A DNA stretch of 45,428 bases from an uncultured Candidatus Saccharibacteria bacterium (GTDB lineage Bacteria; Patescibacteriota; Minisyncoccia; 2-02-FULL-40-12; GWA2-44-9), in assembly GCA_964429675.1 (NCBI GenBank), contig CAYSDF010000001.1, positions 1 through 45,428 on the forward strand, given 5' to 3'. This document shows positions 2,352 to 20,056 of the stretch, in pieces; the first letter of the stretch is position 1, and the number at the start of each line of letters is the position of its first letter. Made by a program: the position numbers and the translations under genes. The notes under the pieces are model-generated. The model was not told where the DNA came from. It searched no databases and saw only the letters and a list, made by a program, of their open reading frames with translations.

Positions 2352-4409
2352 ATGAAAATAGATAAAGACAGATTATTTGAGTTAAAGAACCAGATTATCA
2401 TGGCAGAGAAGCTGAATAAAGAAGAGCTTGAGCCCGTGATGAAAGAGGGTATTGAAAGGTATACGGGGATACACATCCCGAAGTACGGGTATAACTGGGA
2501 CATTATGTTGAATGAAGTGTATCCGATAATCCAGACGAATCTGCCGGCGATATTCTTTAGGAACCCGAAGGCGTTTTTAAAGCCGAGGCAGAAGACGTTT
2601 ATAGCCAAGAAGCTCGACCCGGAGACGGGGAAGAAGATTGATATCGAGATGGATTCCCAGAAATCAGCGAATACGCAAGAAGGGATACTGAATTACGACA
2701 TTTACCGCATGAAGTATAAACGGGAGACGAGGAAAGTCTTAGTAGATAGTTTGCTTTTTCCTCACGGAGTTCTTTGGCACGGATACAAAGGTGATTTCGG
2801 TATGACAGAGGAGCAGAATCTCTGGATAGAAGACGATAAAGTCTTTGTCTCGAGGCTTTGTCCGATACGGTTCATTAAAGACCCGAATGTGAATATGTCG
2901 AATATCGACGAAGGCAAGTGGGTCGGAAGAATCATCGACATGCCTTATCAGGATTTGGTCGAAGACGACAAGCTGGATGTGAATAAGGCTCTGATAAAAG
3001 GATTTAAGGGGTACGGAAATAAAGTAGGGCTAGCTTCGTACTTACATGCGAAGGACACACTACAGGTGGGTGGGGTCGACAAGCTCACGTTGGGCGGGTT
3101 TCGCAGGAATTTACTGGAGTTTACCGACGAAGGTTTTAGAGAAAGCAAGTATTCGAAGTTCGTGAGGGTGTATGAAATATTTTTAAGACCGACGAAGCAG
3201 GAAAGAAGAAAAGGCGGGAAGGGATACATACTGCTTTTGACTTTCGAGCAGCCGGAACCGTTAAGGGTGAATGAGTGGACGATTAAAGCCGAAGGGTTCC
3301 CGTCGAAGATACTTCAGTTCAACGAATTAAATGACCAAGAATACGGTATGCCGGATATCGATACCTATAAAGACATCGCTGACCAGAAAAACATCATTAC
3401 GAATTTACAATTACGAAATGCGCAGGAGAATTCAAAGGTTTATGTCGGGATAGCGACGGCGGGGATAGACGGCGAGGAGAATATCGAGAAGATACAGAAA
3501 GGCGACCAGACGATAATTCTTTTCCCCGGGGAAACGATATTAAACCGTATGACAGTACAGTCCGGTGGCGGACAGGCTTCCAGTGAGCTTTATCTTATCG
3601 ACCAGAGAATCCAGAAGAACCTCGATGACAAATCCGGGGTGACCGATTTACGACGGGGAGTTTTGCAGAGCGGGGAAGAGAGTGCCCTGAGTGTCAAGAT
3701 GAGAGCGAATGCCTCGACGGCCCGTCCGGCGTACCGACAGGACATCATGGCGGATTTCCTGAAAGAATCTTTTGTTTATATCAACCAGCTTCACAAACAG
3801 TTCATGCCCTACGAAGAGGCAGTGAGGATTATCGGGAGCCTGGATTTACAGTGGACGGATAAGCCGACCAGAGAGGATATACAGGCGGATGTGGATGTGG
3901 AGATAGACGCTATTTCGATGTTACCGGAGAATCCACAGGAAGAGTTGGCGCAGTTACAGCAGATTTTAATGTTGATGATGCAAGGCATAACCCAGCCAGC
4001 GATAATGGAGAAAATTAAGCAGGAAGGTAAGACGATAAATCTATCTCCGATAATCGAGCAGATACTTATCCGCTCGAAAATTAAAGACCCGGATATTTTC
4101 CGTAACCTGAAACCGGAAGAGAGTCAGGGATATGTAGCGGTCGAGCAGTTACAGGAAGCAAAGGCCAATGTTAATGCGGCCTTAACTGGTCAGCCTGTGC
4201 CTTTCCCCCCGAAGGTGCAGGATGACCATATAGCTAAGCTCGAGATTTATACTACGATACAGGAATTGCTGGCGAAAGCGAATCAGGTCAGTGACATCTT
4301 GGAGCAGTTGATACAGATACAGTCCCAGCTTTTACAGGAAGTGCAGGACAAACAGGCCCAAGAAGGGCAGAAGATAAATCTTAAAAAACCCCAAACGGTG
4401 AATATATGA
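2352..4409 (+). CDS. portal protein (putative)
   Basis: 685 aa from the first ATG (MKIDKDR). The ORF-track TTG start at 2337 lies inside the hairpin. Size and position immediately after terL, with an acidic Gln-rich C-terminus. Confidence 0.65.
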   Translation: MKIDKDRLFELKNQIIMAEKLNKEELEPVMKEGIERYTGIHIPKYGYNWDIMLNEVYPIIQTNLPAIFFRNPKAFLKPRQKTFIAKKLDPETGKKIDIEMDSQKSANTQEGILNYDIYRMKYKRETRKVLVDSLLFPHGVLWHGYKGDFGMTEEQNLWIEDDKVFVSRLCPIRFIKDPNVNMSNIDEGKWVGRIIDMPYQDLVEDDKLDVNKALIKGFKGYGNKVGLASYLHAKDTLQVGGVDKLTLGGFRRNLLEFTDEGFRESKYSKFVRVYEIFLRPTKQERRKGGKGYILLLTFEQPEPLRVNEWTIKAEGFPSKILQFNELNDQEYGMPDIDTYKDIADQKNIITNLQLRNAQENSKVYVGIATAGIDGEENIEKIQKGDQTIILFPGETILNRMTVQSGGGQASSELYLIDQRIQKNLDDKSGVTDLRRGVLQSGEESALSVKMRANASTARPAYRQDIMADFLKESFVYINQLHKQFMPYEEAVRIIGSLDLQWTDKPTREDIQADVDVEIDAISMLPENPQEELAQLQQILMLMMQGITQPAIMEKIKQEGKTINLSPIIEQILIRSKIKDPDIFRNLKPEESQGYVAVEQLQEAKANVNAALTGQPVPFPPKVQDDHIAKLEIYTTIQELLAKANQVSDILEQLIQIQSQLLQEVQDKQAQEGQKINLKKPQTVNI

Positions 4410-4615
4410 ATTTAATCCAGATTTCCCCCAATGTAATCTTAAATGCGGAGCATATTTCCTGTATTGAGCAGACCCGAGAACGAGGTAAAGACGTGATTTA
4501 TGTCTGGTGTAACGGCGTGAAGTACGAGTATGACAACGAAAAGAACGCTCCGATAGGGTATTTCATCAGTTTACTGACGAATTCAGGTAAGAAAGAGCAG
4601 TATTTCGCCCTATGA
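4406..4615 (+). CDS. hypothetical protein (69 aa)
   Basis: ATGA overlap with the portal stop and with the next ORF, indicating translational coupling. Confidence 0.55.
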   Translation: MNLIQISPNVILNAEHISCIEQTRERGKDVIYVWCNGVKYEYDNEKNAPIGYFISLLTNSGKKEQYFAL

Positions 4616-4974
4616 CACACATAATCGTTAAAAATTACGAGCATTTCAACCGCAGTTTACCGAACTGGGACTCTCCGAAGGGGAAGTATATAAGGAGCAA
4701 GGCTCAATATCAGAACGAACTGGCGAAATCCGGGATGAAAGTGGTCGAGAAGTTCGGGCAGACCAGTGAACCGAAGAGAAAAGAGTACGTTATCTCCCAA
4801 AAGACAAGAGAAATCATCAAAGAAGTTCGCCAGACTAAAGACAAGAAGGGTAATGTAAGGTTAAGTGATCGGCAGATAGATGCCATGAGACAAATGGGAG
4901 CGATAGGCAAAAAGATACCGACGTATATGGGGAAACCTAGTGGGAAAGGCGGTTTTTATGCCGTTGACAGGTAA
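4612..4974 (+). CDS. hypothetical basic protein (120 aa)
   Basis: Tightly packed in the head module. Lys/Arg-rich. Confidence 0.55.
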   Translation: MTHIIVKNYEHFNRSLPNWDSPKGKYIRSKAQYQNELAKSGMKVVEKFGQTSEPKRKEYVISQKTREIIKEVRQTKDKKGNVRLSDRQIDAMRQMGAIGKKIPTYMGKPSGKGGFYAVDR

Positions 4975-5089
4975 AGGCAAAGAGATTTTATCGAGTATGA
5001 AGAAAAGTTACGGGGCTAAGAAAGCGAAATCGGTTTTCTATGCCTCGATAAATGCCGGGAAGATAAAAGGAGCGGAAAAAGGCAAATGA
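4958..5089 (+). CDS. small basic protein (43 aa, below the ORF-track cutoff)
   Basis: Hand translation gives MPLTGKGKEILSSMKKSYGAKKAKSVFYASINAGKIKGAEKGK. It overlaps both neighbouring ORFs, sharing ATGA with the ORF at 5086. Confidence 0.45.
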   Translation: MPLTGKGKEILSSMKKSYGAKKAKSVFYASINAGKIKGAEKGK

Positions 5090-5310
5090 ATTTCATTCGT
5101 ATCCGAGGAGGAGTGGTGGTAAGGCGGGATTGCATTGAAGTCATTGAGCAGGTGGACGATTTTCGCTGCCGGGTGACGGTGAACGGCACGATATACGAAT
5201 GTAACTTACCATTTTCATCGCTTTTGAGTGCTTTAGAGCTCGTACAGACTCCCGGAGTGAGTTTGCCGGGGATAAGTCCAAGTGGGCCCAGTCAATATTT
5301 TGCAGGATAA
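5086..5310 (+). CDS. hypothetical protein (74 aa)
   Basis: ORF in the operon frame, upstream of the scaffold-like gene. Confidence 0.5.
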   Translation: MNFIRIRGGVVVRRDCIEVIEQVDDFRCRVTVNGTIYECNLPFSSLLSALELVQTPGVSLPGISPSGPSQYFAG

Positions 5311-5338
5311 TCAATTCTAACCTGAAAGGGAGAAAATT

Positions 5339-6154
5339 ATGCCAGAACCAACTGTAGTTGAGCCCCAAGTAGTGCCTTCGGTGGTCAATCCGGCGGTGAA
5401 GTCCGAACCGGATTTAATCACGAAGGTTACGCAGTTCAAAAAAGAAACTGTCCAGCCGGAGGGCGTTGATATTAACTTCGACTATAAAGAGTTGGAGAAT
5501 ATCAAAGACCCGGTTGCTAAAGAAGTGGCTATGAAGGCGTATAAGAGCATGCAGGCCGGAGCCACTAAAAAATTTCAAGAGGCTTCTCAGTTAAAAAAAG
5601 AAGCCGAGGAAAAACTGAAGAGCGTCGAGAAGAAACAATGGACACCGGAGTTGATTCAGAAAGAGTTACTGAACGACCCCCAATTTCTTTCGGCGGCGCA
5701 GTTAATTTCCGGGAATAACAACAACACAGAATCGTCGTTGTTGTCGGACGAGGAGAAGGCGGAGATGAATAGACTCAAGAACAAAGTGATGACTCTTGAG
5801 CAATCGAATCAGCTCGCTTTAATCTCTCAGGAAGACGCACAGCTGTCATCGAAGTTCTCTGATTACAATTCCGTCAGGATTGATGAGGCGTTATCGAATC
5901 TGGTCAATACTCAGCCTCATAAACTACGGGAGTATGTGTATAAGGCGACTTTTCACGATGAGCATGTCAAGGCGGCTTATGAGATGGGTCTCCAAGAATC
6001 TAAAAAAAACAATCAAGAAAAAATTAATGCGTTCTCTGCGAATGGGAGTCAGGTGAATTCCAGTGAGAATATTCCGGTCAAGGACAAGGGAGAGAGTGAC
6101 ACGGCGTATTTCATTCGACTGGCCCAGAGCAGAATGGCGCAGATGAAAAAATAG
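5339..6154 (+). CDS. scaffolding protein (putative)
   Basis: 271 aa, Glu/Lys/Gln-rich and coiled-coil-like, immediately upstream of the capsid gene. GGGAG RBS. Confidence 0.55.
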   Translation: MPEPTVVEPQVVPSVVNPAVKSEPDLITKVTQFKKETVQPEGVDINFDYKELENIKDPVAKEVAMKAYKSMQAGATKKFQEASQLKKEAEEKLKSVEKKQWTPELIQKELLNDPQFLSAAQLISGNNNNTESSLLSDEEKAEMNRLKNKVMTLEQSNQLALISQEDAQLSSKFSDYNSVRIDEALSNLVNTQPHKLREYVYKATFHDEHVKAAYEMGLQESKKNNQEKINAFSANGSQVNSSENIPVKDKGESDTAYFIRLAQSRMAQMKK

Positions 6155-6167
6155 AAAGCAGGCATAA

Positions 6168-7118
6168 ATGGCAAGCGCATACGGTATTCCAACGACAATA
6201 GACAGTGTTGTCTTAGCTACGTCTTTGGCGGATTATCAAAAGACTTTAGCGGACAACGTCTATAACACCAACGTAGTGTTGTCCATGCTATCCCGGAATA
6301 AAGAGTTGAAAGACGGTGGACTTTCCATCGTTCAGCCCTTAATGACGGTGAAGCAGGATGACGGAGGATTTTTCTTGGGAGCGGATGTCCTGAATAACAC
6401 TCAAAAGAATTTCGCCAATCAGATTGAATATCTCTGGCAGAACGCTTATGAGCCTATTCAGTTGACCCGTGATGAAGAGAGACAGAATAGCGGCAGTGAG
6501 CATCGGATTCTCAGTCTCATGGCCGCCAAGACCAAATCTTCAGAAATGGCTATCGCCGATAGATTGGAGCAGGCTTTAACGACTCCTCTGGCGAACGCTA
6601 ACAACCTGATTGACCTCGAGACACTGGTTAATACCGGGACTCTGGGGACAATCAACGGAGCCACAACGACTATCTGGCAGTCGACCTTAACGACTTCCGG
6701 TGTCTTTGCGACTCAGGGTCTTTCGGATATGACGACAGCGACTTATGCTGTGGCCTCTTCGGGACAAGTGGATAATCCCACGGATTATCTAACCACGAAA
6801 ACAATCTTCCAAAAGTTTGAGCAGACCCGTCTTCCGCTCGAGAGAATTGCCAATGGCAATACCTCAGCGAATGCCGGATTCACCAATCTTACTTTTAAAG
6901 GAAAACCCGTGGTTTATGGAAACTATGTTTCCGCAGGGTTGTTGTTCGGTTTAAACATGAACTATATCCATCTTGCGGTGGATACGGTGACGGATTTAAT
7001 TACAACCGATTTCAGGGAGCCGGTGAATCAGATGGTACGAGTTGCGTACATTCTGTGGAGAGGCCAACTCTGGACGGATAATCGCAGACGTCATTTCAAA
7101 CTCTCGAGTATTACCTAA
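6168..7118 (+). CDS. major capsid protein (putative)
   Basis: 316 aa. Position follows the portal-scaffold-capsid order. No family signature could be verified by eye. Confidence 0.6.
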   Translation: MASAYGIPTTIDSVVLATSLADYQKTLADNVYNTNVVLSMLSRNKELKDGGLSIVQPLMTVKQDDGGFFLGADVLNNTQKNFANQIEYLWQNAYEPIQLTRDEERQNSGSEHRILSLMAAKTKSSEMAIADRLEQALTTPLANANNLIDLETLVNTGTLGTINGATTTIWQSTLTTSGVFATQGLSDMTTATYAVASSGQVDNPTDYLTTKTIFQKFEQTRLPLERIANGNTSANAGFTNLTFKGKPVVYGNYVSAGLLFGLNMNYIHLAVDTVTDLITTDFREPVNQMVRVAYILWRGQLWTDNRRRHFKLSSIT

Positions 7119-7136
7119 AAGAAAGGAGTTTGAAAA

Positions 7137-7406
7137 ATGGCAGTTCAGACACCAGCATCAGGATACCCTATCCGGGAATCGGTTGGTTCATTAACTCTAT
7201 TTATCGTCAGGTTCACCTCGGTAGCTACGACTGACACTTACGCCAGTGGTCTAGGCAGTAATGTTGTCGGATACTGGGCGAACGGAGAAACGGATGAAGG
7301 CACCGACGGTGATGAAGGGATTAATGTGGCGAACAGTTCCGGAACGTTTACTTTTGCCTTAAAGACAGCTGGAATTGTGACGCTGTATATTCTGGCAAGG
7401 GCTTAA
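7137..7406 (+). CDS. small virion-module protein (89 aa), Thr/Gly/Ser-rich
   Basis: AAAGGAG RBS. Lies directly after the capsid gene and could be a decoration-type protein. Confidence 0.5.
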   Translation: MAVQTPASGYPIRESVGSLTLFIVRFTSVATTDTYASGLGSNVVGYWANGETDEGTDGDEGINVANSSGTFTFALKTAGIVTLYILARA

Positions 7407-7462
7407 TTAAATTGGCGCAATATGTTGAGGCATGCAGAGGCGCCTAACGAAAGGAAATTACA

Positions 7463-8287
7463 ATGGCTTTACCTTCACCACAGTATTTCAGTAACGCAAT
7501 AGTCGGCAATATGCAATCCGGTGCGGACGTTAATGTTTACCGTACGGATTCTGCACCGAAATATCCGATAGGACAAGGGTTCTACCGGGCAGACGGAAAT
7601 ATCTTCCGGTACGCTTCGTTCGATGCTGCCGTGACCGCTGGACGGTTAGTGGCCCCGGTGGTAGCGAATAACGGCTTGACGGTGACCGATAACAAAATTA
7701 TCGGAGCGGCTTCGGCGACTATCGTCGAGGCAGAACGACCGATTCAACCGGGAACCGTGGGAAGTCACTGGATTCAAGTGACCATCTCGGGGATAGCGGC
7801 TAGTAAATACGCCGGTGGGTATTTAATTACTGAAGATGGGTCAGGTAAATCTTTCACTTACAGAATCGCCAATAACACGGCGACGAACAATCCTGTGAGC
7901 GGAGATTTATATCTTCAGTTGTATGAACCCCTACAGGCACAGGTCAGCGCAAATACCGACATTATCATCGTTCCCAGCATGTATAACGATGTGGATGTCG
8001 CTTCTGCGGCGACCAACTGGGCAGTGAGCGGAGTTGCGATGTCAACTACGACCTCGACCAATATCTTTGGTTGGGTCTGTACTCACGGTGTGGTCGGTGT
8101 GTTGCAGGATGGGGCTTGGACTGGCGGCGACCAGCTGGCTCTGTCTACGGCGGTTAATGGAGCGGCCTGTACTTACGGTGCTTTAACGACCAGCGTCTCG
8201 GCTCTTACCGGAGTTCAAATCATCGGTTATGCCATTCAGAACGGTGGCGATACCGAATTGGGAGCAGCTTACTTACAAATCGAATGA
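7463..8287 (+). CDS. hypothetical virion protein (274 aa), Ala/Thr/Gly/Ser-rich
   Basis: AAAGGAAA RBS. Its stop overlaps (ATGA) the start of the downstream GT-A-like gene. Confidence 0.55.
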   Translation: MALPSPQYFSNAIVGNMQSGADVNVYRTDSAPKYPIGQGFYRADGNIFRYASFDAAVTAGRLVAPVVANNGLTVTDNKIIGAASATIVEAERPIQPGTVGSHWIQVTISGIAASKYAGGYLITEDGSGKSFTYRIANNTATNNPVSGDLYLQLYEPLQAQVSANTDIIIVPSMYNDVDVASAATNWAVSGVAMSTTTSTNIFGWVCTHGVVGVLQDGAWTGGDQLALSTAVNGAACTYGALTTSVSALTGVQIIGYAIQNGGDTELGAAYLQIE

Positions 8288-8958
8288 AAAGTATTTTCAT
8301 TGGAGTTTGTCAGACACGTCAGGACGAAAGGTTTCAGTCATCGTATCGTCGGTTTACGGATGATCTAGTCGAAGACTACAGTATCTGTATGACGAAGGTG
8401 ATTGATACCTTTCTTCCTGACGCTCAGAATCAGATAGCGGAAAGGTTTCTGGCTTCGGAATACGATTACCTTCTGCTTCTGGATGATGACCACTGGGGGC
8501 ATACGAGGGAGATGTTAGAGACGTTAATAAAGGCCGATTCCGATATGGCGACGATAAAGACGTATTCGAGGCATTACCCTTATTCCTGTGCTCTGATGAA
8601 AAAGACAAATACCGGGTATGCGGGGATAGAAAACGGAAAAGGATATCAGGAATGCGATATGACCGGGTTTCCGATGACGTTGATTAAACGGAAACTTTTC
8701 TTAAAGCTCGAGAAACCGTATTTTCGAGGAAGGTATGACGGAGGGAGAGACTGGGCCACGGATAAAGAGTTTTGCGAGAGGATACGGGACTTAGGGATTA
8801 AACCGATGGGATGTTTTCAGCATTGCTTACCTCATGCCGATATTACTGAGGAGAATGTGCAGGAACGAAGATATTTAGAGAGATGGCAGAATAACAATAT
8901 CGCTTCGTATATGTTATTCCATCAACGAAGGAGAGAAGAATGTATGGTGCCCCGGTAG
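8284..8958 (+). CDS. GT-A-like glycosyltransferase, structural-module copy 1
   Basis: 224 aa with a YDYLLLLDDDHWGH (DxD-type) motif. Clear full-length paralogue of 11369..12040, sharing LDDDH.GHT.EMLE.L, GF.MTLIKR, KPYF, MGCF.(H/Y)CLPH. Confidence 0.55.
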   Translation: MKSIFIGVCQTRQDERFQSSYRRFTDDLVEDYSICMTKVIDTFLPDAQNQIAERFLASEYDYLLLLDDDHWGHTREMLETLIKADSDMATIKTYSRHYPYSCALMKKTNTGYAGIENGKGYQECDMTGFPMTLIKRKLFLKLEKPYFRGRYDGGRDWATDKEFCERIRDLGIKPMGCFQHCLPHADITEENVQERRYLERWQNNNIASYMLFHQRRREECMVPR

Positions 8959-9239
8959 GGACGAAGGTCATAACGTCTAGTCAGCAGGTTGTTCCGACAA
9001 ATTTCCACGCAAGGCTTTTTAATATGAATATTCTGGCCGCCGGAACGAGTACGACGGTACAGGCGTTAAGTAATGGAGCGACAGGGACGTTAATTTTACA
9101 GGAACAGAGTACGTCGAGTAATCCGAAGACCGTGGATTATGGAGTCAACGGCCATGAATTCCCGAAGGGGATATATATATTATTTGATGCGCAGACAACA
9201 CAGGTAACGTTGTCATATCGACAAGAAGAAAGCAATTAA
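8940..9239 (+). CDS. small beta-rich virion-module protein (99 aa), Ser/Thr-rich
   Basis: Overlaps the end of the GT gene. Contains AAGTSTTVQALSNGATGT. Confidence 0.5.
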   Translation: MYGAPVGTKVITSSQQVVPTNFHARLFNMNILAAGTSTTVQALSNGATGTLILQEQSTSSNPKTVDYGVNGHEFPKGIYILFDAQTTQVTLSYRQEESN

Positions 9240-9265
9240 CCAAGTCTAACCGAGAGGAGACAGTT

Positions 9266-9742
9266 ATGCCAAGCTGGGTCACAGATGAGAAAGGTCTTTG
9301 GCATCCCGCCAAAGAAAAGGTAGGGTTGACGAATCATGGAGATAAACCATTTAAACATCCGGTGACCGGAGAGATGATAGGCCCCGGAGAACCGTTTATT
9401 TACGAAGGCCCGGACAGAGCGGCTTTGTTCGAGCTTTATACTATTGATAAGACCGGCAAGACTACGACGTTAGGCGAGAACTTCCGGCAGAACACGGAGT
9501 TTCTGGAATATTACGCCAAGATGAGGAATGCGTTCGGGTTTACTAATGTCGACCAATTCTTGGAATATCTGGGGTATGACGAGGAAGGCAAGAAGAAAGA
9601 ATTCGAGGAAAAGGCTTCTCGGATTAACAAGCATGAAATCCCCAAGCGGGTCAAAGAGATTCAGAAGTTAGGCGGTGGGGATGACAGGGCCGGAGGCAAG
9701 AATGTCCGTTTTGGCGGGTTTGGGGACATACCGAAAGAATAA
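9266..9742 (+). CDS. hypothetical protein (158 aa)
   Basis: GAGAGGAG RBS. In the operon. Confidence 0.55.
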   Translation: MPSWVTDEKGLWHPAKEKVGLTNHGDKPFKHPVTGEMIGPGEPFIYEGPDRAALFELYTIDKTGKTTTLGENFRQNTEFLEYYAKMRNAFGFTNVDQFLEYLGYDEEGKKKEFEEKASRINKHEIPKRVKEIQKLGGGDDRAGGKNVRFGGFGDIPKE

Positions 9743-10011
9743 TGGGATACAACGTCGTAGTTGTAGGGAATACCGCAACGAAGATACTAACGCAGCCGAC
9801 AGCGGGACGCTCCCGCAAGTCGGCTGTTTTTACTAACAACTCGGGGTACATTGTGTATATCGGATTCGATTCAAATGTGACGGTTGATACGGGGTTTCCT
9901 TTGAATCAGAATGATATCTGGCAGACGAATGAGCCAAGGTGTTATCAGGGAGAAGTTTACGGGATACTGACCAGCGGTACAGCGAGTGTCCCGTATCAGG
10001 AGATTCTATGA
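9742..10011 (+). CDS. small beta-rich virion-module protein (89 aa)
   Basis: Start overlaps the upstream stop (TAATG). ATGA overlap with the fibre gene. Confidence 0.5.
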   Translation: MGYNVVVVGNTATKILTQPTAGRSRKSAVFTNNSGYIVYIGFDSNVTVDTGFPLNQNDIWQTNEPRCYQGEVYGILTSGTASVPYQEIL

Positions 10012-11018
10012 CGATGGAAGTAAAAAGAGCCGGAGGCGGTGGTGCTGGGTCGAGTAATAGTGGATGGACAGATGACGGAACAGTCGTCCGGCTGACGACG
10101 GCAACGGATAAAGTCGGAATAGGGAATACCAATCCACAAAGTGCCCTTTCTGTTGGGAGCTTAGCTACTTTTAATTCTAAATCAATTTTTGAGATTTATG
10201 AACAGGCTACTTCTACCAACAACCTAGAAGGGGTTATGTATGGAGAGCTTGATTACGATTTGCAAAATAATAATAATACGTCTCTATATGGAATGGATTT
10301 TGAACTTTACCCAAATTTTGCGCAAAATAATGTTGCAATGAATAGGATTGATAGTATTTATAATTTAGTTTATGTATCTCAAGACCAAGGATTGACTGGG
10401 AATTCTTTTAGTCTCATTACTGGATATTACGCCCAAATTAATATTAATAACGGAATTACAGTTAACGATGCCTATGGTCTTTTAATTAGTGCTGTAACAG
10501 GGGCGGTCAACAACTGGGGAATTTATGTTAGTGATGCCAGTGCTAAAAATTACTTGGCTGGAGTTCTTCAGTTAGATAACAAAATTACAAAATATAATGG
10601 TATTGCTACAGTTTCCAACGGTGCCCCTGCCGAATACGCTACAGTTGACTTGACGGGTCAAACCGCCGCAATTACTGCCACAACTGCCTATGCTGTTCCC
10701 GCTAGCGGAGCTGGGATGTATAGAATTTCATGGGTAGCGAAAGTTACGACAGCAGCCTCGGTTTCTTCGGTTTTGGGTGGAACAAATGGGTTTCAGATTA
10801 AATATACCGACGCGGATGATTCGGTGGTGGTCACTACGGGAGCTTTGGCAAATGAGAATACGCTATCATTGAGTACAAATACCACACAAACCATTTATGT
10901 TGGTGCTTTGGTGGTTAATGCCAAAGCCAGCACAAATATTCAGTATTTAATGGATTACACGAGTGCAGGGGGAACCGCAATGCAATATAATCTTCATTTA
11001 AAAGTTGAGGCTCTATAA
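10008..11018 (+). CDS. tail-fibre-like protein (336 aa)
   Basis: Start chosen at the ATG overlapping the upstream stop. The N-terminus DDGTVVRLTTATDKVGIGNTNPQSALSV carries the VGIGTxxP fibre motif that is also repeated in 14660..16228. Confidence 0.6.
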   Translation: MTMEVKRAGGGGAGSSNSGWTDDGTVVRLTTATDKVGIGNTNPQSALSVGSLATFNSKSIFEIYEQATSTNNLEGVMYGELDYDLQNNNNTSLYGMDFELYPNFAQNNVAMNRIDSIYNLVYVSQDQGLTGNSFSLITGYYAQININNGITVNDAYGLLISAVTGAVNNWGIYVSDASAKNYLAGVLQLDNKITKYNGIATVSNGAPAEYATVDLTGQTAAITATTAYAVPASGAGMYRISWVAKVTTAASVSSVLGGTNGFQIKYTDADDSVVVTTGALANENTLSLSTNTTQTIYVGALVVNAKASTNIQYLMDYTSAGGTAMQYNLHLKVEAL

Positions 11019-11372
11019 ATGACACTTAAAAGTTATTATTTTCAGCAAATAGGTCAACAGTTCGCTTTTGCCAATGTTGCTTCTGGTTCCACAGATACGA
11101 GTTTGGTGACAGCGGTGGTTGGGATAAAAATCAGGGTTATTGCTTTAGTCATGGTCACCGCAGCCACAGCAACAAACGTGACCTTTAATACCAAGCCTTC
11201 GGGTTCTGGAACGGCTATCTCCTGCTTATTCGCTAACGGTGCCAATGGAGGAGCCGTACTGCCGTTTAATCCCGCCGGATGGTTTGAGACCAATGTGGGA
11301 GAGGGATTGACGGTTACAACTGGGTCAGGGTCAACGACAGGGATTTCGGTTGTTTATCAGGAGGTCGGATGA
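11019..11372 (+). CDS. small beta-rich virion-module protein (117 aa), Thr/Gly/Ala-rich
   Basis: Starts 1 nt after the fibre stop. ATGA overlap with the downstream GT-A-like gene. Confidence 0.5.
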   Translation: MTLKSYYFQQIGQQFAFANVASGSTDTSLVTAVVGIKIRVIALVMVTAATATNVTFNTKPSGSGTAISCLFANGANGGAVLPFNPAGWFETNVGEGLTVTTGSGSTTGISVVYQEVG

Positions 11373-12040
11373 AGATCTTAGTCGGGATACCGAGTATCCG
11401 TAGTTACGGACCGTTTATAGAATCCATGAATTCTTTTCTTCCAGCGATTTCCAAGTTCCATGAAGTTGAGGTCTACGAAGTCAGAAACCGAACCATCGCC
11501 GAAGCGAGGAATATGATAGCCGATTATTTCCTTTCCAAAGACTTTGAATACCTGCTTTTCTTAGATGACGACCATTCCGGGCACACCGTTGAAATGCTCG
11601 AGGTGCTTTTTAATACGAACGCTATGGTCTCAGGAATTAAATGCTACCGTAAAGATTTTCCTTACTTACCGAATCTTCTGGATTATTCCGGGAATTCCGA
11701 GGAATTGGTGAAGTATAGAGTCAAAGACGAAACAACAGGTATTCTGGAATGCGACCTTGTCGGATTTGGAATGACGCTGATTAAACGGGAAGTCTTTAAT
11801 CTGATGTCTAAACCTTACTTCATTGGGAAAGAGAATCAGAAAGAAGACAATTATTTTTGCGACAAATTGAGGGAACGAGGAGTCAAACTCATGGGATGTT
11901 TTGATTACTGTTTACCTCATCAGGGAATCGGGGAGAAAGAAGCTAAAGAACTTTACGACCAAGAAATCCAGAAAGTCATGGAAAGAATCGTCAAAGAAAA
12001 TCCGGGGATAGGTCATTTTAATCTCTCATTAATAGCATAG
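11369..12040 (+). CDS. GT-A-like glycosyltransferase, structural-module copy 2
   Basis: 223 aa. N-terminal MKILVGIPSIRSY and FEYLLFLDDDHSGH. Paralogue of 8284..8958. Confidence 0.55.
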   Translation: MKILVGIPSIRSYGPFIESMNSFLPAISKFHEVEVYEVRNRTIAEARNMIADYFLSKDFEYLLFLDDDHSGHTVEMLEVLFNTNAMVSGIKCYRKDFPYLPNLLDYSGNSEELVKYRVKDETTGILECDLVGFGMTLIKREVFNLMSKPYFIGKENQKEDNYFCDKLRERGVKLMGCFDYCLPHQGIGEKEAKELYDQEIQKVMERIVKENPGIGHFNLSLIA

Positions 12041-12047
12041 GAGACGT

Positions 12048-12536
12048 ATGGCAAATGTAAAGATATCATATTCGGCGTCAGGAACGATAACTTGTACTTT
12101 AGCGGCTCTTGCCAGTTCTTCGACTATTGGGCAGAGTTCAACCTCGATAGATAACGGAACCAATCTTTATGACGATGTCCTTTTGAATCTCGGAATTAAG
12201 GTTTCAGGAACGGCGTTGGGTGCAGATAAAGCGGTGTTCGTTTATGTCTATGGTTCCGAGGATGGGACGAACTACTCCGGGGCTTCTTCTGAGGCGATTG
12301 GTTCGGATACAGCAGTGAATATCAACAGCCCTTCTAACCTTAGGGGCCCGGTTAATATATCAACGCCGGGTACTTCCCAGACGTACTTTCAGGTGATTCC
12401 TATCGCTCAGTTTTTCGGAGGCAGAATGCCAAGAAAATGGGGATACGTTGTGTTAAACGGCACGAAACAGAATTTCGACCCGACAGAAACAAATCACACC
12501 AAGACCTATACTGGTGTGACTTATACGGTGGTTTAA
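12048..12536 (+). CDS. hypothetical virion protein (162 aa)
   Basis: GGAGA RBS. Ser/Thr/Gly-rich. Confidence 0.55.
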   Translation: MANVKISYSASGTITCTLAALASSSTIGQSSTSIDNGTNLYDDVLLNLGIKVSGTALGADKAVFVYVYGSEDGTNYSGASSEAIGSDTAVNINSPSNLRGPVNISTPGTSQTYFQVIPIAQFFGGRMPRKWGYVVLNGTKQNFDPTETNHTKTYTGVTYTVV

Positions 12537-13384
12537 TGATAGCGACTAATTATTTTAAAAACAAGCCTCCTGTAGGAGCGATTATTGATTACGGGCATTC
12601 TTTATCTAAAGGGCTAAATGCGTGCTGGTTGATGAATGAAGGCGCAGGGAATACTATTAAGGACTTGATTAATCCTGCCAGTAATGGGAAATTTACCAAC
12701 TTTGCTGGGAATTCAGGGTGGAATAATAATGGTAAATTCGGAGAATGTGTAAGGATTCAAAACAGCACTAATTTTATTTCCTGTGGAACAAGGGATGTGG
12801 TTAAGCTCTCTTCTCCGATGACGATTAGTACTTGGGTTTATCCTAATAGTAAAGGCGGTGGCGGGTTAGCAAGAATCTTTTTTAAACAAGGCACTTCAAG
12901 TTCGCTCGGATTTCATTTTCAATTTGAGAGTGATGGCGTGGCGAATACATTCAGCTTGAGCATCGATGGTACCGCAACTACTGCCTCGGAAACGAATGGA
13001 TGTATTGTTTTTGGAGTATGGCAGCATTTACTAGGGACATGGGATGGAGGTACAGCCGGGAATGGGATTAGGCTTTATTACAATGGTTTAGAAAGCACTT
13101 ATGTCGGCAGGTTCGACGGTTCTGGTCAGGGGAATTTTTCAGGAGGGCTGAATCATATTGGTAATCGTGGTGATTTGGGTAGAGGAGTGGATGGGTCAAT
13201 AGATAATGTGATGATTTGGAACCGTGTTCTTAGCGCACAGGAAATATACAGTTTATACGTTAATCCATATTCAATGTTTTACAGTAATTATCTTACACAA
13301 TTCAGGAATTTAGGGATATTCAGGAAGACTTTATCTTCCATAGGAACCAGAACCGGGACAAGACAATCTCAGGAGTGGAACTAA
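12536..13384 (+). CDS. LamG / concanavalin-like lectin-fold protein (putative receptor-binding)
   Basis: 282 aa from the ATG overlapping the upstream stop (TAATG). Contains LNACWLMNEGAGNTIKDL and a C-terminal GSIDNVMIWNRVLSAQEIYSLY, as in Laminin_G_3-type domains. Confidence 0.6.
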   Translation: MIATNYFKNKPPVGAIIDYGHSLSKGLNACWLMNEGAGNTIKDLINPASNGKFTNFAGNSGWNNNGKFGECVRIQNSTNFISCGTRDVVKLSSPMTISTWVYPNSKGGGGLARIFFKQGTSSSLGFHFQFESDGVANTFSLSIDGTATTASETNGCIVFGVWQHLLGTWDGGTAGNGIRLYYNGLESTYVGRFDGSGQGNFSGGLNHIGNRGDLGRGVDGSIDNVMIWNRVLSAQEIYSLYVNPYSMFYSNYLTQFRNLGIFRKTLSSIGTRTGTRQSQEWN

Positions 13385-14410
13385 ATGGCTCTCTTAAAAC
13401 AAAGCACAGTCAGAGTTCGTTCTTTTAAAATGATAGATTCTTCAGACCATATCTCAAAGAAAACAAGTCTCACATGTACGGTGAATATCTCAAAGAATGG
13501 AGCTGGGTTTGGCGCAGCAGCGGGTTCGGTCGCAGAGATAGCGAACGGCTGGTACAGCGTGACCTTAACGGCGGCGGATACAGGGACTCTCGGAGACTTG
13601 GCTTTTTATATCACCGCCTCCGGTGCGGATGATACGGATTTCGTAGACCAAGTCGTCGCCTTTGACCCACAGGGATTGATTGCGGCTAATGTTATTCAGT
13701 ATGTCAGCGGGACAGCTTCGACGAATGTGGCTGGTATCCCGAAAGTAGATATTGTCGACGTCAGTGGTGTGGCGGTTTCAGCGACAACGGCACAGCTTGG
13801 TGTCAATGTTGTCAACTGGAACAACAGTGCCGTATCGGCTCCGAATATTGCCGGGGTTCCAAAGGTAGATATTGTGGATATCGGTGGGGCGGCTCTTTCT
13901 ACGAGTATTGCCCAAGTAGGAGTCAATGTTATTCAGTATGCTTCAGGTACAGCCTCTACCAATATCGCCGGAATTCCTAAAGTGGATTTCGTAGATATCG
14001 GAGGAGTGGCCCTCAATACTTCTCTTGCTCAACTTGGGGTTAATGTCGTTCAGTATGCCTCTGGGACAACTTCTACTAACGTTGCTGGAACGCCAAAGGT
14101 AGATTTGGTTTATACAAACGGAACTTCTCCTACGGTGCAGATAAAGAAAAATGCCGCTTACGATAATTTCACTTTTCCGATGATAGATTCCAGTGACCAC
14201 ATTAGTCTTAAAACTGGGTTGACGGTATCTGGGACGATTTCAAAGGACGGAGGTACCTTTGGGGCCTTGACGAATTCCGTGGCGGAGTTAGCCAGCGGAG
14301 TCTACAAAGTGAATCTGACGGCAAATGAATTGAATGCTAAGGACATTATGTTAAAGTTTACCGCTTCTGGAGGAGATACGAGGATAATCAAATTCGTAAC
14401 TCAAACTTAA
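13385..14410 (+). CDS. fibre-like protein with internal tandem repeats and duplicated end domains (341 aa)
   Basis: About 3.6 repeats of 39-40 aa (VIQY.SGTASTN.AGIPKVD.VD.GG.AL...AQ.GVN). The N- and C-terminal domains both carry MIDSSDHIS.KT.L. Confidence 0.6.
   Translation: MALLKQSTVRVRSFKMIDSSDHISKKTSLTCTVNISKNGAGFGAAAGSVAEIANGWYSVTLTAADTGTLGDLAFYITASGADDTDFVDQVVAFDPQGLIAANVIQYVSGTASTNVAGIPKVDIVDVSGVAVSATTAQLGVNVVNWNNSAVSAPNIAGVPKVDIVDIGGAALSTSIAQVGVNVIQYASGTASTNIAGIPKVDFVDIGGVALNTSLAQLGVNVVQYASGTTSTNVAGTPKVDLVYTNGTSPTVQIKKNAAYDNFTFPMIDSSDHISLKTGLTVSGTISKDGGTFGALTNSVAELASGVYKVNLTANELNAKDIMLKFTASGGDTRIIKFVTQT
13691..14110 (+). repeat. about 117-120 bp tandem coding repeats (about 3.6 copies)
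   Basis: Seen in the translated ORF 13385..14410. Boundaries are approximate. Confidence 0.7.
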
Positions 14411-14411
14411 A

Positions 14412-14663
14412 ATGTGGGATTTTTCTTCAACACTTTATCAAGCTACTTTTTTTAATATATTTCATGGGGTTGGGAATGTCTTTGATTTATCGAGTTCTGG
14501 AAGCGGTGGGTTAGGTGGAACAACCGGATTTTATCTTTTACTGATGGGTGTAGGCGGAGGAGCTAATGCAGTCGGTGGTGGAGGAGGAGATGCTGGGGCG
14601 TTAGGAGGAATAGGCGGTGATGCGTTGGGTGGTGTGGCTGGAGATGCTTTAGGAGGCGTATGA
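14412..14663 (+). CDS. Gly-rich small protein (83 aa)
   Basis: Starts 1 nt after the upstream stop. ATGA overlap with the next gene. C-terminal GGDA(L/G)GG repeats. Confidence 0.45.
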   Translation: MWDFSSTLYQATFFNIFHGVGNVFDLSSSGSGGLGGTTGFYLLLMGVGGGANAVGGGGGDAGALGGIGGDALGGVAGDALGGV

Positions 14664-16228
14664 TAAAAAAAATATTCTGGATTATTTCAATGCTTTTGAT
14701 TCCAACGGTATGTTGGGCGGTAACGAGAATCATCGACTTAAGTCAAATCACTCCGACGAATGACGACATTACTTACTGTGCCGATGGCGGAGCAACGGAT
14801 AGGAAATGCCAAGTAGGGGATATTTCTAAACTCTCAGGTTGGTCTAGGTCTAGCACGTATAGTCTCTTAAATACTCCCACAGATTACATCGGGATTGGGA
14901 CTTCGACACCTCAGGCTTATGTACATATTTACAATACAGACCCTATTGACCTTTTCAGAATAGATGACCAAGGCAGTGATACCACCCCTGTTATTGTTTC
15001 GCAAGATGGGCATGTTGGGATAGGTACAACGGCACCGAGCGGAGCTCTGGATGTTAGAGGAGCTGAAGTTAGAATCTGGACAGGCGCAGGGACAGATACG
15101 AATGCAGGTAATCCCGGAGAACTTTATGTGGAAGGAGACTTGGAGGTTGATGGGACGATCTACGGTGTAGCGGCTACATATACGGGTGATGTGACCGTGC
15201 CAACTGAAGTATATGATGCTTCTGGATGGGATGGTGATTTAACAGTCCCCACAAAGGATGCAGTAAGGGACAAGATTGAGACTTTAGGAGCCGTGACTAG
15301 CGGGTTTGTTGATGATGGAACAATCATCCGTTTAAATACCTCAACGGATACTGTGGGGTTAGGAACAACGACTTCTACTCCGAGACTGACTTTAGTGGGG
15401 TTAGGAACGACTTCCGCTACGAATTCTATGGTAATCACGGATTCAGCTTTATCAGAGAAATTGAGATTCGATGATTCTGGGCAGATGGGGATTGGGACTA
15501 CAGTGCCAAGAGGAAAACTTGACGTTGCGGGTACGGCGTATTTCGGGACGTCTGGTGCGGGGACTGTCTCAGGAGGGGCGAATCTAGCTATAAGCGGTGA
15601 TGGAGGGACAACGACGCATATGACCGTAAAAAGCACAGGACTAGTGGGGATTGGTTCAACGAATCCAATCGAGAAATTGGATGTGGCTGGGACTATAATT
15701 TCTTCCGGAGCAAGTAATGGAGTTAATTTTGGTGACGGGACTGTCTATGTTTATTCGACGGCAGCAGCCAATGGCAACTTGACTTTCGGGTCTGGGGACA
15801 ACGACAGAATGACTGTTAATACCATCGGTGATGTTGGAATCGGCTCGACTAATCCGACAGCTGCTCTGGAAATAGCTATTCCCACTGGTTCTAATTACGG
15901 ATTTTTGTTAAAAGGGAATTCTGGGGTAAATGGCGGGAATGCGGATTTCGAGTTGGATACCGCCAATGGCGCAGGGCAATGGGATTTAGCGGCAGACCAG
16001 CAAAGCAGCTCGAGGTTTGATATTTATGACCGGGTCAGCAATAAGACTCCGTTTAAAATAAATGTGGGAGCAGCCTCTAGTTCTTTTGTGATTTCGGCTG
16101 CAGGAGAAGTTTCTATGCAAGCGGTCAGTTCTGACGGGACAGGAAAAGTGGTATGTATAAAATCAGACGGGAATCTGGGAACTTGCGGAGCAGGGACTAT
16201 CGGGACTTCGACATGCACATGCAACTAA
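14660..16228 (+). CDS. tail-fibre-like protein with a Sec-type signal peptide (522 aa)
   Basis: N-terminus is MIKKIFWIISMLLIPTVCWA. At least six (I/V/M)G(I/L)G(T/S)T.P......L.(V/I) fibre repeats. Cys-rich C-terminus VVCIKSDGNLGTCG..TSTCTCN. Confidence 0.6.
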   Translation: MIKKIFWIISMLLIPTVCWAVTRIIDLSQITPTNDDITYCADGGATDRKCQVGDISKLSGWSRSSTYSLLNTPTDYIGIGTSTPQAYVHIYNTDPIDLFRIDDQGSDTTPVIVSQDGHVGIGTTAPSGALDVRGAEVRIWTGAGTDTNAGNPGELYVEGDLEVDGTIYGVAATYTGDVTVPTEVYDASGWDGDLTVPTKDAVRDKIETLGAVTSGFVDDGTIIRLNTSTDTVGLGTTTSTPRLTLVGLGTTSATNSMVITDSALSEKLRFDDSGQMGIGTTVPRGKLDVAGTAYFGTSGAGTVSGGANLAISGDGGTTTHMTVKSTGLVGIGSTNPIEKLDVAGTIISSGASNGVNFGDGTVYVYSTAAANGNLTFGSGDNDRMTVNTIGDVGIGSTNPTAALEIAIPTGSNYGFLLKGNSGVNGGNADFELDTANGAGQWDLAADQQSSSRFDIYDRVSNKTPFKINVGAASSSFVISAAGEVSMQAVSSDGTGKVVCIKSDGNLGTCGAGTIGTSTCTCN

Positions 16229-18648: not shown

Positions 18649-18923
18649 TGACACCTTTGAGTGATGACGCAAAGAGTTTCCTAGAGCGTAAGCATATAGA
18701 GAATCTGGAAGTTTTAACGAGGATAGATACCAATTTAAAGAACCATCTGGCAAGTTTTTCAAAGCACGAAGAAAAGTTCGATATTCATGTCGCTAAAGAT
18801 GAGAATAGTTTTATTGCCCATTCTGTCAGGATGGGACGGATAGAAAGAAATCAGTATATCGTATTTGGAATTTTCGTATGTTTACAATTCATTTTAAACC
18901 TGTGGATTGCTTTAAAAAAATAA
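18648..18923 (+). CDS. hypothetical protein with a C-terminal transmembrane anchor (91 aa)
   Basis: TAATG overlap with the upstream gene. C-terminus is IVFGIFVCLQFILNLWIALKK. Confidence 0.5.
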   Translation: MTPLSDDAKSFLERKHIENLEVLTRIDTNLKNHLASFSKHEEKFDIHVAKDENSFIAHSVRMGRIERNQYIVFGIFVCLQFILNLWIALKK

Positions 18924-18927
18924 GACT

Positions 18928-19083
18928 ATGGATAAAATCAAACTGGATTTATCAAAAGCGATTAAGTGTCCCCAGTGTCATCGGCACCAGATAAAGTTAA
19001 TCAATCAGAACAAAATCTATAAGTGCGAGAACTGCGGGATGGAATGGGACAATGAGAATATTCTTGATTTTGATACTGTGTAG
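18928..19083 (+). CDS. small zinc-ribbon protein (51 aa, below the ORF-track cutoff)
   Basis: Hand translation gives MDKIKLDLSKAIKCPQCHRHQIKLINQNKIYKCENCGMEWDNENILDFDTV, with two CxxC pairs. Confidence 0.4.
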   Translation: MDKIKLDLSKAIKCPQCHRHQIKLINQNKIYKCENCGMEWDNENILDFDTV

Positions 19084-19492
19084 CCTCAGTGGATTTCTGT
19101 ACCGGCTTGGCGGAAGCGGAAAGGCGAATACTAAAGCCAGAGACTTCGGTGTCCCTATGTGCATGGTTTTAACAATGTGTATTTTAGGGTTAAAGCACTG
19201 GACGCTACTCTTTTCTTTTGGACTTCTTTTCGGGGCATTAACTACCTATTTTAAAGAAAAGGATACAGATGCTCAGTGGTATAACTGGCTGGTCTGTGGA
19301 CTGGCTTATTCGATTTCGATGTTACCTACGGTGTGGGCTTTGGGATTGTGGCCCGGATTTGGTCTCAGGACGCTCACATTAGGCCTAGGAACGATGATTT
19401 GGTCTCAAACCATAGGAAATGCGGTTTGGGAAGAAGCGGGGCGTGGGGCCTTAATTATAGCCACTTTGCCGATGTTGCTTATTTTAAAATGA
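19052..19492 (+). CDS. multi-pass membrane protein (146 aa, about 4 TM segments)
   Basis: Four hydrophobic stretches. Lies next to the lysis cassette. Function unknown; could be holin-like or an exclusion protein. Confidence 0.5.
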   Translation: MRIFLILILCSLSGFLYRLGGSGKANTKARDFGVPMCMVLTMCILGLKHWTLLFSFGLLFGALTTYFKEKDTDAQWYNWLVCGLAYSISMLPTVWALGLWPGFGLRTLTLGLGTMIWSQTIGNAVWEEAGRGALIIATLPMLLILK

Positions 19493-19494
19493 TT

Positions 19495-19986
19495 TTAAAC
19501 ATAACTCCATATTGTATTTCTATTTATACAAGATATAGTTGGTTGACTACAATTATACTTTTTAGCGATTACTTTTTGTTCCATTCCATTTTTCAGACAA
19601 TTACGAATTTCTTTAATTTTTGTTTGTGTGAGCTTAGTTCTTTTCGGACAAAGACCATTTTTAAAAGCATGTCTTATATTTTCAGACCTAGAAACATATT
19701 CCAAATTGTTAATTTTATTATCGGTTTTTATCCCGTTTCTATGGTTTATGTCAAATGTTTTTGGTCTAGGCCCAAGAAAATGTTCTATAACAAGGTGCGC
19801 TATTCTAAAGCATTTTTGAAAACCATTTTTGCTCAAAACAACAAAATAATATCCTGTTTTCAATCCCGGTTTGAGTATTCTGTTTTTTTTGCAAAGACCA
19901 GTTCCATTAACGTCTCTTCTAACATTTCCCATATCGGAAATAGAATAAAAATTTTCATAACCTTTTATTGGCTTCCAATTTTCCAT
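19495..19986 (-). mobile_element. free-standing HNH homing endonuclease (NUMOD4 + HNH_3 type)
   Basis: MENWKPIKGYENFYSISDMGNVRR (NUMOD4-like) and INHRNGIKTDNKINNLEYVS (HNH). It is the only minus-strand gene inside the + strand late region and is visibly AT-rich. An alternative start lies at 20046. Confidence 0.8.
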
Positions 19987-20056
19987 AATTGGAATTATAG
20001 TAATATAATGTACAAAAAGCAATGTTTTTATTATTAATCGGGACATAGGAGGAACT

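Follow-up and report, generated by a model that had tools for sequence, protein, structure and literature searches.

Why would a bacteriophage keep two related glycosyltransferase (GT) genes among the genes for its capsid and fibres, and what do their products glycosylate? The question is raised by contig CAYSDF010000001.1 of GenBank assembly GCA_964429675.1, filed under an uncultured Candidatus Saccharibacteria bacterium; its whole analysed stretch of 45,428 nucleotides is referred to here as the window. The window is a tailed-phage genome with genes for a large terminase, a major capsid protein (MCP) and tail-fibre-like proteins, and no tRNA genes were found in it. Two open reading frames (ORFs), which we call GTa and GTb (Table 1), sit within the capsid/fibre module, between the MCP gene and the fibre-like genes. 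An earlier reading of this DNA, made from the letters only, had proposed that both encode GT-A-like enzymes dedicated to capsid-decoration or fibre proteins encoded beside them. We find that GTa and GTb are anciently duplicated enzymes with a predicted GT-A fold, a conserved active site and a gene context that is kept in related phages. This conserved arrangement suggests that the phage coats its own particle with sugars. Glycosylation of virion surface proteins by GTa and GTb is the best-supported reading, inferred from gene context, and we judge it an even call.

GTa and GTb are old paralogues within the capsid module

An all-against-all BLAST comparison of the 60 ORFs of the window showed that GTa and GTb match solely one another, with 36% identity over 196 aligned residues (E 2e-44, BLASTP), and the proposal that they are full-length paralogues was thus borne out. 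The two proteins have in common the motifs YLL(L/F)LDDDH.GHT.EMLE.L, GF.MTLIKR, KPYF and MGCF..CLPH. All the motifs quoted in the sequence-only reading are present in both, but its LLLDDDH reads LLFLDDDH in GTb. Orthologues of GTa in other contigs are 48–69% identical to GTa and 33–40% identical to GTb, and the higher identity within than between the groups indicates that the duplication is old.

The genes around GTa and GTb are collected in Table 1. The coordinates given earlier for s89a, p274, GTa, s99, s89b, s117 and GTb were exact. Each GT gene begins in an ATGA overlap with the stop codon of the gene before it (p274 and s117, respectively), and both overlaps are present in the DNA as described; beside that of GTb, a GGAGG sequence lies 5 nt upstream of the start. 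The overlaps had been taken as translational coupling particular to the two pairs, a point that did not hold, since tight junctions are usual here: among the 16 junctions between genes from 7118 to 18648, a spacing of 1 nt or less is found at 12 and an ATGA overlap at four. Because overlaps are usual in the operon, coupling does not single out enzyme-substrate pairs. The two upstream proteins are indeed rich in Ser, Thr, Ala and Gly, with a content of 0.41 for p274 and 0.46 for s117 compared with about 0.2 for the two GT enzymes, but this richness is common to the module, with values of 0.33–0.54 in nearly all virion-module ORFs. A promoter and terminator scan of positions 5000..21000 gave counts no higher than those of shuffled controls.

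Table 1. Features of the capsid/fibre module and the opposite-strand glycan island, with the modification genes of relatives
Contig	Feature	Coordinates	Strand	Description
Window	MCP	6168..7118	+	Major capsid protein, 316 aa; phrog_9953 major head protein, E 1.3e-37
Window	s89a	7137..7406	+	Small Ser/Thr/Ala/Gly-rich protein, 89 aa; always after the capsid gene
Window	p274	7463..8287	+	All-beta protein, 274 aa; candidate GTa acceptor
Window	GTa	8284..8958	+	Predicted GT-A glycosyltransferase paralogue, 224 aa; the copy that every fetched relative covering the position has
Window	s99	8940..9239	+	Small beta-rich protein, 99 aa; always directly after GTa
Window	p158	9266..9742	+	Conserved, charged, not Ser/Thr-rich, 158 aa
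Window	s89b	9742..10011	+	Small protein, 89 aa; in a subset of relatives
Window	p336	10008..11018	+	Fibre-like; N-terminal segment shared with the 522-aa tail-fibre-like protein at 14660..16228
Window	s117	11019..11372	+	Highly conserved beta-rich domain of about 100 aa; candidate GTb acceptor or partner
Window	GTb	11369..12040	+	Predicted GT-A glycosyltransferase paralogue, 223 aa; D66/D68 (DxD), D160 (base candidate), H69, H184
Window	p162 and 282-aa protein	12048..13384	+	Downstream virion-module genes; p162 Ser/Thr-rich, 282-aa protein with Laminin_G_3/ConA-like lectin fold
Window	Glycan-biosynthesis island	29375..36469	-	Four GT2-like ORFs, NDP-sugar 4,6-dehydratase, split sugar C-methyltransferase, fifth possible GT, PEP-CTERM protein
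Window	C-methyltransferase part	31254..31661	-	C-terminal Methyltransf_14 domain, E 1.3e-37
Window	C-methyltransferase part	31624..32412	-	Zn-binding Methyltransf_13 and Methyltransf_23 domains
L068	APS kinase and/or sulfotransferase after s117-GTb	5675..7629
L004	APS kinase and/or sulfotransferase after s117-GTb	3674..6079
ENA ERZ27296333, 43,198-bp contig (no DNA)	APS kinase and/or sulfotransferase after s117-GTb

A GT-A fold with a conserved active site

An AlphaFold2 model of GTb was built from an alignment of 54 sequences that includes GTa and was predicted with high confidence (pLDDT, the predicted local distance difference test, 95.8; predicted TM-score 0.91). The model consists of one Rossmann-like alpha/beta/alpha domain built around a central mixed beta-sheet. 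A Foldseek search of the PDB returned 475 matches at E 0.001 or better; among the 50 matches listed, all 50 are nucleotide-sugar enzymes and nearly all of these are GT-A glycosyltransferases. The top match is the GT domain of human LH3 (E 1.6e-10), and COLGALT1, mimivirus R699, Mnn9 and ppGalNAc-T2 are also matched. Several of these top matches glycosylate proteins. The A197 protein of Sulfolobus turreted icosahedral virus (STIV) was found at E 2.9e-10, with a TM-score of 0.63 on the target, a root mean square deviation of 3.8 Å and 23% identity. A197 is also the sole solved structure that can be detected by sequence (profile E 2.7e-4).

The predicted active site agrees with this fold. The LFLDDDH sequence that contains the DxD motif follows directly on strand 61–65 of the GTb model, and its FLDDD part aligns with FLDED, the DED motif of A197. 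In the 54-sequence alignment, D68, H69, D160 and H184 are invariant and D66, D67 and H72 are conserved at 90% or more. The invariant EDNYF sequence, which contains D160, aligns with GEDVYF of A197, whose Asp151 is the proposed catalytic base, and by this alignment D160 is the candidate for the same role in GTb. The pattern extends to 68 distant representatives of the family: numbered on the reference sequence P0279, the His at position 185 (equivalent to H184) is invariant, and D68 and D161 (equivalent to D160) are at least 90% conserved. In many GT-A enzymes a His near the C-terminus completes the metal site, and H184 is a possible further metal ligand, judging from this conservation. The structural matches listed are nucleotide-sugar enzymes and not another fold such as an oxygenase, and we regard the predicted assignment of GTa and GTb to the GT-A class, which the sequence-only reading had anticipated, as secure.

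Placement of the two proteins in a curated family was not possible. GTb approaches the Pfam family Anp1 (PF03452, GT62) with E 4.9e-6 but does not reach the gathering threshold (26.6 vs 28.8 bits), and GTa scores 12.5 bits against the same 28.8. Glycos_transf_2 (PF00535, GT2) matched GTb at E 0.18, with 12.2 bits where 23.3 are needed, and gave no match to GTa in the Pfam scan. The NCBIfam rhamnosyltransferase model matched GTb at E 1.8e-5 (24.1 vs 200.55 bits). Membership in GT62 or GT2 is not claimed because these scores lie under the curated cut-offs. Among the PHROGs, GTb is closest to phrog_1574 (unknown function, E 2.1e-7) and GTa to phrog_2456 (glycosyltransferase, E 7e-4). GTa and GTb belong to an unannotated GT-A family.

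This family looks largely virus-restricted and is closest to STIV A197. A search of 5.8 billion proteins gave 91 homologues, many of them on contigs of 38–45 kb. Clustered, the wider family has 51 representatives at E ≤ 1e-30, a number that rises to 1,651 at E ≤ 1e-10; of 68 members sampled from it, 24 match Anp1 and 13 match Glycos_transf_2 in Pfam. When 185,579 species genomes were scanned with a pattern, a single match was confirmed, and it lies on a contig with portal, capsid and GT-methyltransferase genes. With this gene content the contig (L067) looks like a phage, although it is filed as a Smithella sp. metagenome-assembled genome. As the scan used one exact peptide pattern, the scarcity of the family in cells is suggestive and not proven. 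In 50,697 GenBank phage records, tblastn found only four distant matches to the GTs and MCP matches of at most 27% identity; the lineage of the window is uncultured and lacks a close phage relative in GenBank.

The gene neighbourhood is kept in related phages

Related contigs (L-numbered loci) were fetched through exact protein look-up, and gene order was judged only where the recovered stretch covers it. The MCP is 66–81% identical in related contigs. All relatives that cover this part have MCP, s89a, p274, GTa, s99 and p158 in that order, with s89a and p274 present once or twice. s99 adjoins GTa in the window and in L003–L005, L018, L020, L021 and L068. s117 stands before GTb in five of the six distinct contigs for which DNA is available (the window, L004/L005, L018, L019 and L068), and in a seventh GTb contig, for which there is no DNA, a 108-aa gene occupies the position of s117. 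L020 and L021 are without GTb and are also without s117. The s117/GTb overlap is kept among relatives at 4–8 nt. The adjacency of each GT with its neighbours, on which the sequence-only reading had built its case, was therefore retained as gene order, but the overlap between p274 and GTa is lost in relatives and GTb of L003 occurs without s117. p162, which lies downstream of GTb, had no homologue in the relatives fetched.

In three related lineages a sulfotransferase (PF00685/PF13469) is encoded after GTb, still within the virion module, and two of these also have an adenosine phosphosulfate (APS) kinase (PF01583, 106 aa) before the sulfotransferase. The window is without both genes. The arrangement resembles a modification cassette and suggests a sulfated product. 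A literature search found no description of this phage lineage or of sulfotransferases in phage structural modules.

More distant contigs repeat the association with capsid genes. In five of them (L010, L013, L015, L017 and L067), a GT of the GTa/GTb family is fused to a C-terminal S-adenosylmethionine (SAM) methyltransferase, giving proteins of 461–502 aa. The capsid gene and a small Ala/Gly/Thr-rich protein precede the fusion at short distance; in four of the five contigs the distance from the capsid gene to the fusion is at most about 1.3 kb, and the MCPs of these four are 25–27% identical to that of the window. In two metagenomic phages in GenBank (Manatee Spring phages), the MCP gene is succeeded by that of a 100-aa protein and then by the GT; the next gene is for tail tubular protein A in one phage and for an unnamed protein in the second. 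Their 100-aa protein is unrelated to s99 and s117. The recurrence of the GT family beside capsid genes, together with the added modification enzymes, is the main argument for a function directed at the virion.

Candidate acceptors among the neighbours

The neighbours that stay with each enzyme across relatives, p274, s99 and s117, would be the likeliest acceptors. The AlphaFold2 model of p274 is all-beta (pLDDT 90.1). Its Foldseek matches in the PDB are weak (E 6.7e-3 to 0.3, probability up to 1.0) though consistent with each other, and each extends over only about 100 residues; they include capsid chains of Sf11, phiCD508, HFTV1 and XM1, the base of the phi29 gp8.5 head fibre, and GTA virion chains. 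Matches in BFVD reach E 1.7e-6 and are unannotated. At the sequence level p274 has no match in PDB, Pfam or PHROGs and one weak match in the 50,697 GenBank phage records (tblastn); it has 67 homologues, the nearest 73% identical. From the model we consider p274, with moderate confidence, a putative decoration-like capsid protein or similar to a head-fibre base. A loop at residues 192–201 (AMSTTTSTNI) keeps its Ser/Thr richness (49%) among homologues while the individual residues vary, and this conservation is suggestive of a candidate acceptor site. An internal duplication of p274 was considered and discarded, as hhalign of its N-terminal against its C-terminal half gave nothing.

s89a, which has no Pfam or PHROG match, varies in copy number, as does p274. 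Two copies of s89a accompany a single p274 in L020 (8486..9037), and both genes are tandemly duplicated in L021 (7745..9997). The tandem duplication in L021 suggests that the two proteins have a joint role on the particle.

s117 has a much wider distribution. A total of 272 homologues were found, of which the best 120 are 57–77% identical, and s117 occurs in phages with SU10-type capsid proteins. Because this identity holds across phages with different capsid Pfam types (loci L024–L066), s117 is conserved far more strongly than the capsid protein. In the window it forms a protein of its own, and elsewhere it is sometimes the C-terminal domain after fibrous repeats (L032). Two of 47 members match phrog_486 (virion structural protein); the s117 profile gave only chance-level matches in the PDB, and s117 had no match in the 50,697 GenBank phage records by tblastn. 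A rule that s117 always lies beside sugar enzymes was rejected, since Pfam searches of 81 neighbour proteins from IMG/VR revealed only sporadic cases: two RmlD-like proteins and one each of an epimerase, a GDP-mannose-dehydratase, a GT2 and an NTP-transferase, some of which may be the same proteins. The neighbours of s117 in L024–L066 also include two 2-oxoglutarate-Fe(II) oxygenases, an asparagine synthase and a GNAT acetyltransferase. These sporadic enzymes hint at varied chemistry near virion genes.

The small ORFs around the GT genes had been suspected to be distant paralogues of each other. Pairwise hhalign of s89a, s99, p158, s89b, s117, p162 and the two halves of p274 gave a weak signal for s99 with s117 (probability 75–78%, E about 2e-5, 31–33 columns) and no support for the other pairs. 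Iterative hidden Markov model searches of 3,953 ORFs from the fetched loci likewise detected no paralogy among the small ORFs except the s99/s117 signal. The C-terminal ends of s89b and s117 look alike by eye (…SV.YQE), a resemblance without statistical support. On these profile alignments s99 may be a distant paralogue of s117; the pairing is intriguing because each GT would then adjoin one member of the pair.

Other genes of the window

The opposite strand carries a glycan-biosynthesis island. Its four GT2-like ORFs form two pairs, those starting at 29375 and 33143 (43% identity) and those starting at 30466 and 32391 (37%). An NDP-sugar (nucleoside diphosphate sugar) 4,6-dehydratase (33964..34917) lies near a sugar C-methyltransferase, which implies synthesis of a C-methyl deoxysugar. 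The C-methyltransferase (31254..32412, minus strand) is split into two ORFs with a 38-nt overlap; a frameshift error, programmed frameshifting or a genuine division of the gene would each account for the split. The island could supply sugars or further transferases. We also considered its GT2-like ORFs and the ORF at 35260..35889 as kin of GTa and GTb, but detected no relation by BLAST or to the GTa/GTb profile.

The ORF at 35260..35889 (minus strand) begins with PSIRP and has no family match. The sequence-only reading had counted seven GTs in the genome with a common N-terminal motif. The count stands for GTa and GTb, which have the predicted GT-A fold, but no family match supports the assignment of 35260..35889; the seven GT-like ORFs are at least two unrelated families plus one unverified ORF. 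The motif fared similarly. [PA][STG][IV]R[PS] is exact in four of the seven and in none of the remaining 53 ORFs of the window, but two have the variant ASAVRP and GTa, which reads VCQTRQ, has none.

Beside the ORF at 35260..35889, 35879..36469 (minus strand) encodes a 196-aa protein with a signal-peptide-like N-terminus and a C-terminal PEP-CTERM motif that scores 20.4 bits against a cut-off of 20.7. Phages do not usually encode a PEP-CTERM protein, and its presence hints at a Gram-negative host that has an exosortase. Two fibre-region proteins also have signal-peptide-like features. The 522-aa product of 14660..16228 (plus strand) has a hydrophobic N-terminus of this kind (MIKKIFWIISMLLIPTVCWA), and so does the N-terminal segment of the product of 16213..18648 (plus strand) in an 831-aa reading from 16153 (MQLKKIFLTIVLLMITTP). 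Such N-termini are unexpected for virion proteins assembled in the cytoplasm. An HNH/NUMOD4 homing-endonuclease-like gene (19495..20046, minus strand) lies on the opposite strand within the otherwise one-directional late block.

What do GTa and GTb glycosylate?

If GTa and GTb act on the virion, the following course would fit the data. Two anciently duplicated, soluble and predicted catalytically competent GT-A enzymes would be transcribed together with the late virion genes. Each would use a nucleotide-sugar and a divalent metal, the metal bound by the DxD motif and perhaps also by H184, to glycosylate surface proteins of the virion in the cytoplasm, either ahead of assembly or while it proceeds. 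Upstream of GTa the likeliest acceptors would be the decoration-like p274 or the capsid shell, and downstream of it s99; for GTb, the likeliest would be the s117 domain or the fibre to which it belongs. The minus-strand island may extend the glycan or supply sugars. Acceptor, donor, timing and effect on the particle are what we infer here from gene context; the identity of the enzymes and the conservation of that context are solid.

Several observations weigh against this reading. The nearest sequence families, Anp1/GT62, GT2 and rhamnosyltransferase, all matched below cut-off, mostly act on glycans. Adjacency and overlap are weak evidence of pairing in a block where 12 of 16 junctions are so tight, and the p274/GTa overlap is not conserved, relatives having gaps of 3–68 nt. 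L003 has an unrelated 77-aa helical protein before GTb in place of s117. In 40 IMG/VR loci, s117 occurs with no GT of the GTa/GTb family within 8 kb, and its conserved Ser and Thr residues therefore need not be glycosylation sites. The structural E-values of p274 against the PDB are weak, at 6.7e-3 or worse. Finally, inspection of the translation showed that the MCP is without a Ser/Thr-rich tail. Acceptors in mycobacteriophages carry such Ser/Thr-rich tails or segments on capsid or tail proteins.

The alternative that survives best, although we think it unlikely, is that GTa and GTb modify a host envelope glycan (lipopolysaccharide, capsule or an exopolysaccharide precursor) on the cytoplasmic face of the membrane. 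A change of this kind late in infection could hide receptors, prevent superinfection or keep progeny from adhering to debris, and the operon position would then reflect late timing only. The nearest sequence families act on glycans, and the genome holds a glycan island beside a secreted PEP-CTERM protein, but no flippase or GtrA/B-like partner was seen in the family matches of the neighbouring genes. On inspection by eye, without a transmembrane prediction, the GT sequences show no hydrophobic stretch that would obviously span a membrane, and charged residues are abundant in the C-terminal helix of the GTb model (189–210). The sulfotransferase and APS kinase that follow GTb in relatives would fit a sulfated exopolysaccharide equally well. 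The position after capsid and decoration genes, however, is kept across lineages whose MCPs are only about 25–27% identical, and in the pattern scan the family is almost absent from cellular genomes. Host-conversion GTs, moreover, are usually accessory genes near lysogeny or early regions.

A target outside both the envelope and the particle seems to us somewhat less probable still. GTa and GTb might glycosylate a non-virion protein of phage or host, such as a scaffold, an assembly factor or a defence or metabolic target, or a small molecule, as the GT-A fold leaves the acceptor unspecified; their linkage to particular structural genes and the duplication into two fixed positions are simpler to explain with local structural acceptors. 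Glycosylation of hypermodified DNA bases against restriction, as carried out by the T-even glucosyltransferases, is very improbable. A weak local match over 38 residues links GTb to phrog_842, beta-glucosyl-HMC-alpha-glucosyltransferase (E 5e-4), and one of the 68 distant family members touches the TET-associated GT family (TAGT; E 8.7e-4), but both matches are marginal and the GT genes lie in the capsid module. The ORFs scanned include no hydroxymethylase, TET/JBP or other base-modification gene, and for replication the scan identified NinG, a DnaB-like helicase and, as a weak match, a PD-(D/E)XK nuclease. The least credible option, that GTa and GTb are inactive GT-fold relics with a role in structure or assembly, conflicts with the DxD Asp, the catalytic-base Asp and the C-terminal His being invariant or nearly so in close and distant relatives.

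Discussion

Virion self-glycosylation as proposed here has few known parallels. STIV A197 (PDB 2C0N) is the closest analogue of GTa and GTb, with the same fold, the same motifs and a proposal that is equally unproven. Like them it is encoded by a virus and is a soluble GT-A enzyme of small size, about 200 aa; unlike them it is a single GT, and it is only 23% identical. STIV itself is an archaeal virus with a different capsid lineage. A197 is a candidate enzyme for glycosylation of the STIV coat protein, a role that has been proposed and not demonstrated (PMC4187194).

According to the summary of Freeman et al. (2023) given in PMC12363180, mycobacteriophages glycosylate their own capsid and tail-tube proteins with their own GTs, and the examples named there are Che8 gp110, Corndog gp38 and Myrna. 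A phage-encoded GT acting on its own virion is the mechanism that we propose for GTa and GTb. The mycobacteriophages differ in having actinobacterial hosts and in that glycosylation was shown by experiment, whereas here it is deduced from genes; the window differs in having two paralogues at fixed positions inside the capsid module.

The enzymes nearest to GTb by structure or family have other biology. Foldseek matched GTb best to the collagen GTs (E 1.6e-10 to 1e-8 for the human LH3 GT domain, COLGALT1 and mimivirus R699), but they are multi-domain proteins with 10–16% identity. They are GT-A enzymes that glycosylate proteins, and their acceptors are hydroxylysines in collagen repeats; no Gly-X-Y repeats were noticed in the translations of the neighbour ORFs, for which no formal protein repeat search was run. 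GT62 (Anp1), which includes yeast Mnn9 (PDB 3ZF8), and GT2 are the nearest curated families to GTb, and Mnn9 is a structural match as well. Mnn9 is a membrane-anchored subunit of the Golgi mannan polymerase, with a biology different from that of GTa and GTb. The chlorovirus PBCV-1 encodes several GTs that act in the cytoplasm, along with enzymes that modify sugars, and with them assembles an unusual glycan on its major capsid protein. This recalls the window's repertoire of seven GT-like ORFs, dehydratase and C-methyltransferase, although PBCV-1 is a eukaryotic giant virus and its glycans are N-linked.

What differs here from the known systems is an anciently duplicated GT pair that is fixed in the capsid module and kept across an uncultured lineage, with enzymes of methylation and sulfation in relatives. 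A broader proposal, which we put forward only tentatively and consider doubtful as a whole, is that a largely virus-restricted GT-A family in the capsid module of broad uncultured phages of the short-tailed type builds a complex, maybe methylated or sulfated, glycan coat on decoration and fibre proteins. The additions to such a coat would come from the second GT paralogue, from the fused methyltransferases, from the APS kinase and sulfotransferase of relatives and, in the window, from the five-GT island for a C-methyl deoxysugar. The analysis offers enzyme-acceptor candidates, GTa with p274 or s99 and GTb with s117, together with named residues predicted to be catalytic.

Self-glycosylation of virions has been documented by experiment in very few phages, where it alters antibody recognition. 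On the broader proposal, self-glycosylation would reach well beyond the actinobacteriophages, and the widespread and unusually conserved s117 domain would be a dedicated glycan-carrier module. If GTa and GTb do act on virion proteins, a glycan-coated particle would be a widespread strategy across a whole uncultured lineage. A coat of this kind could influence how particles adsorb, how readily they stick to mucus or exopolysaccharide, how well they resist proteases and how they are recognised.

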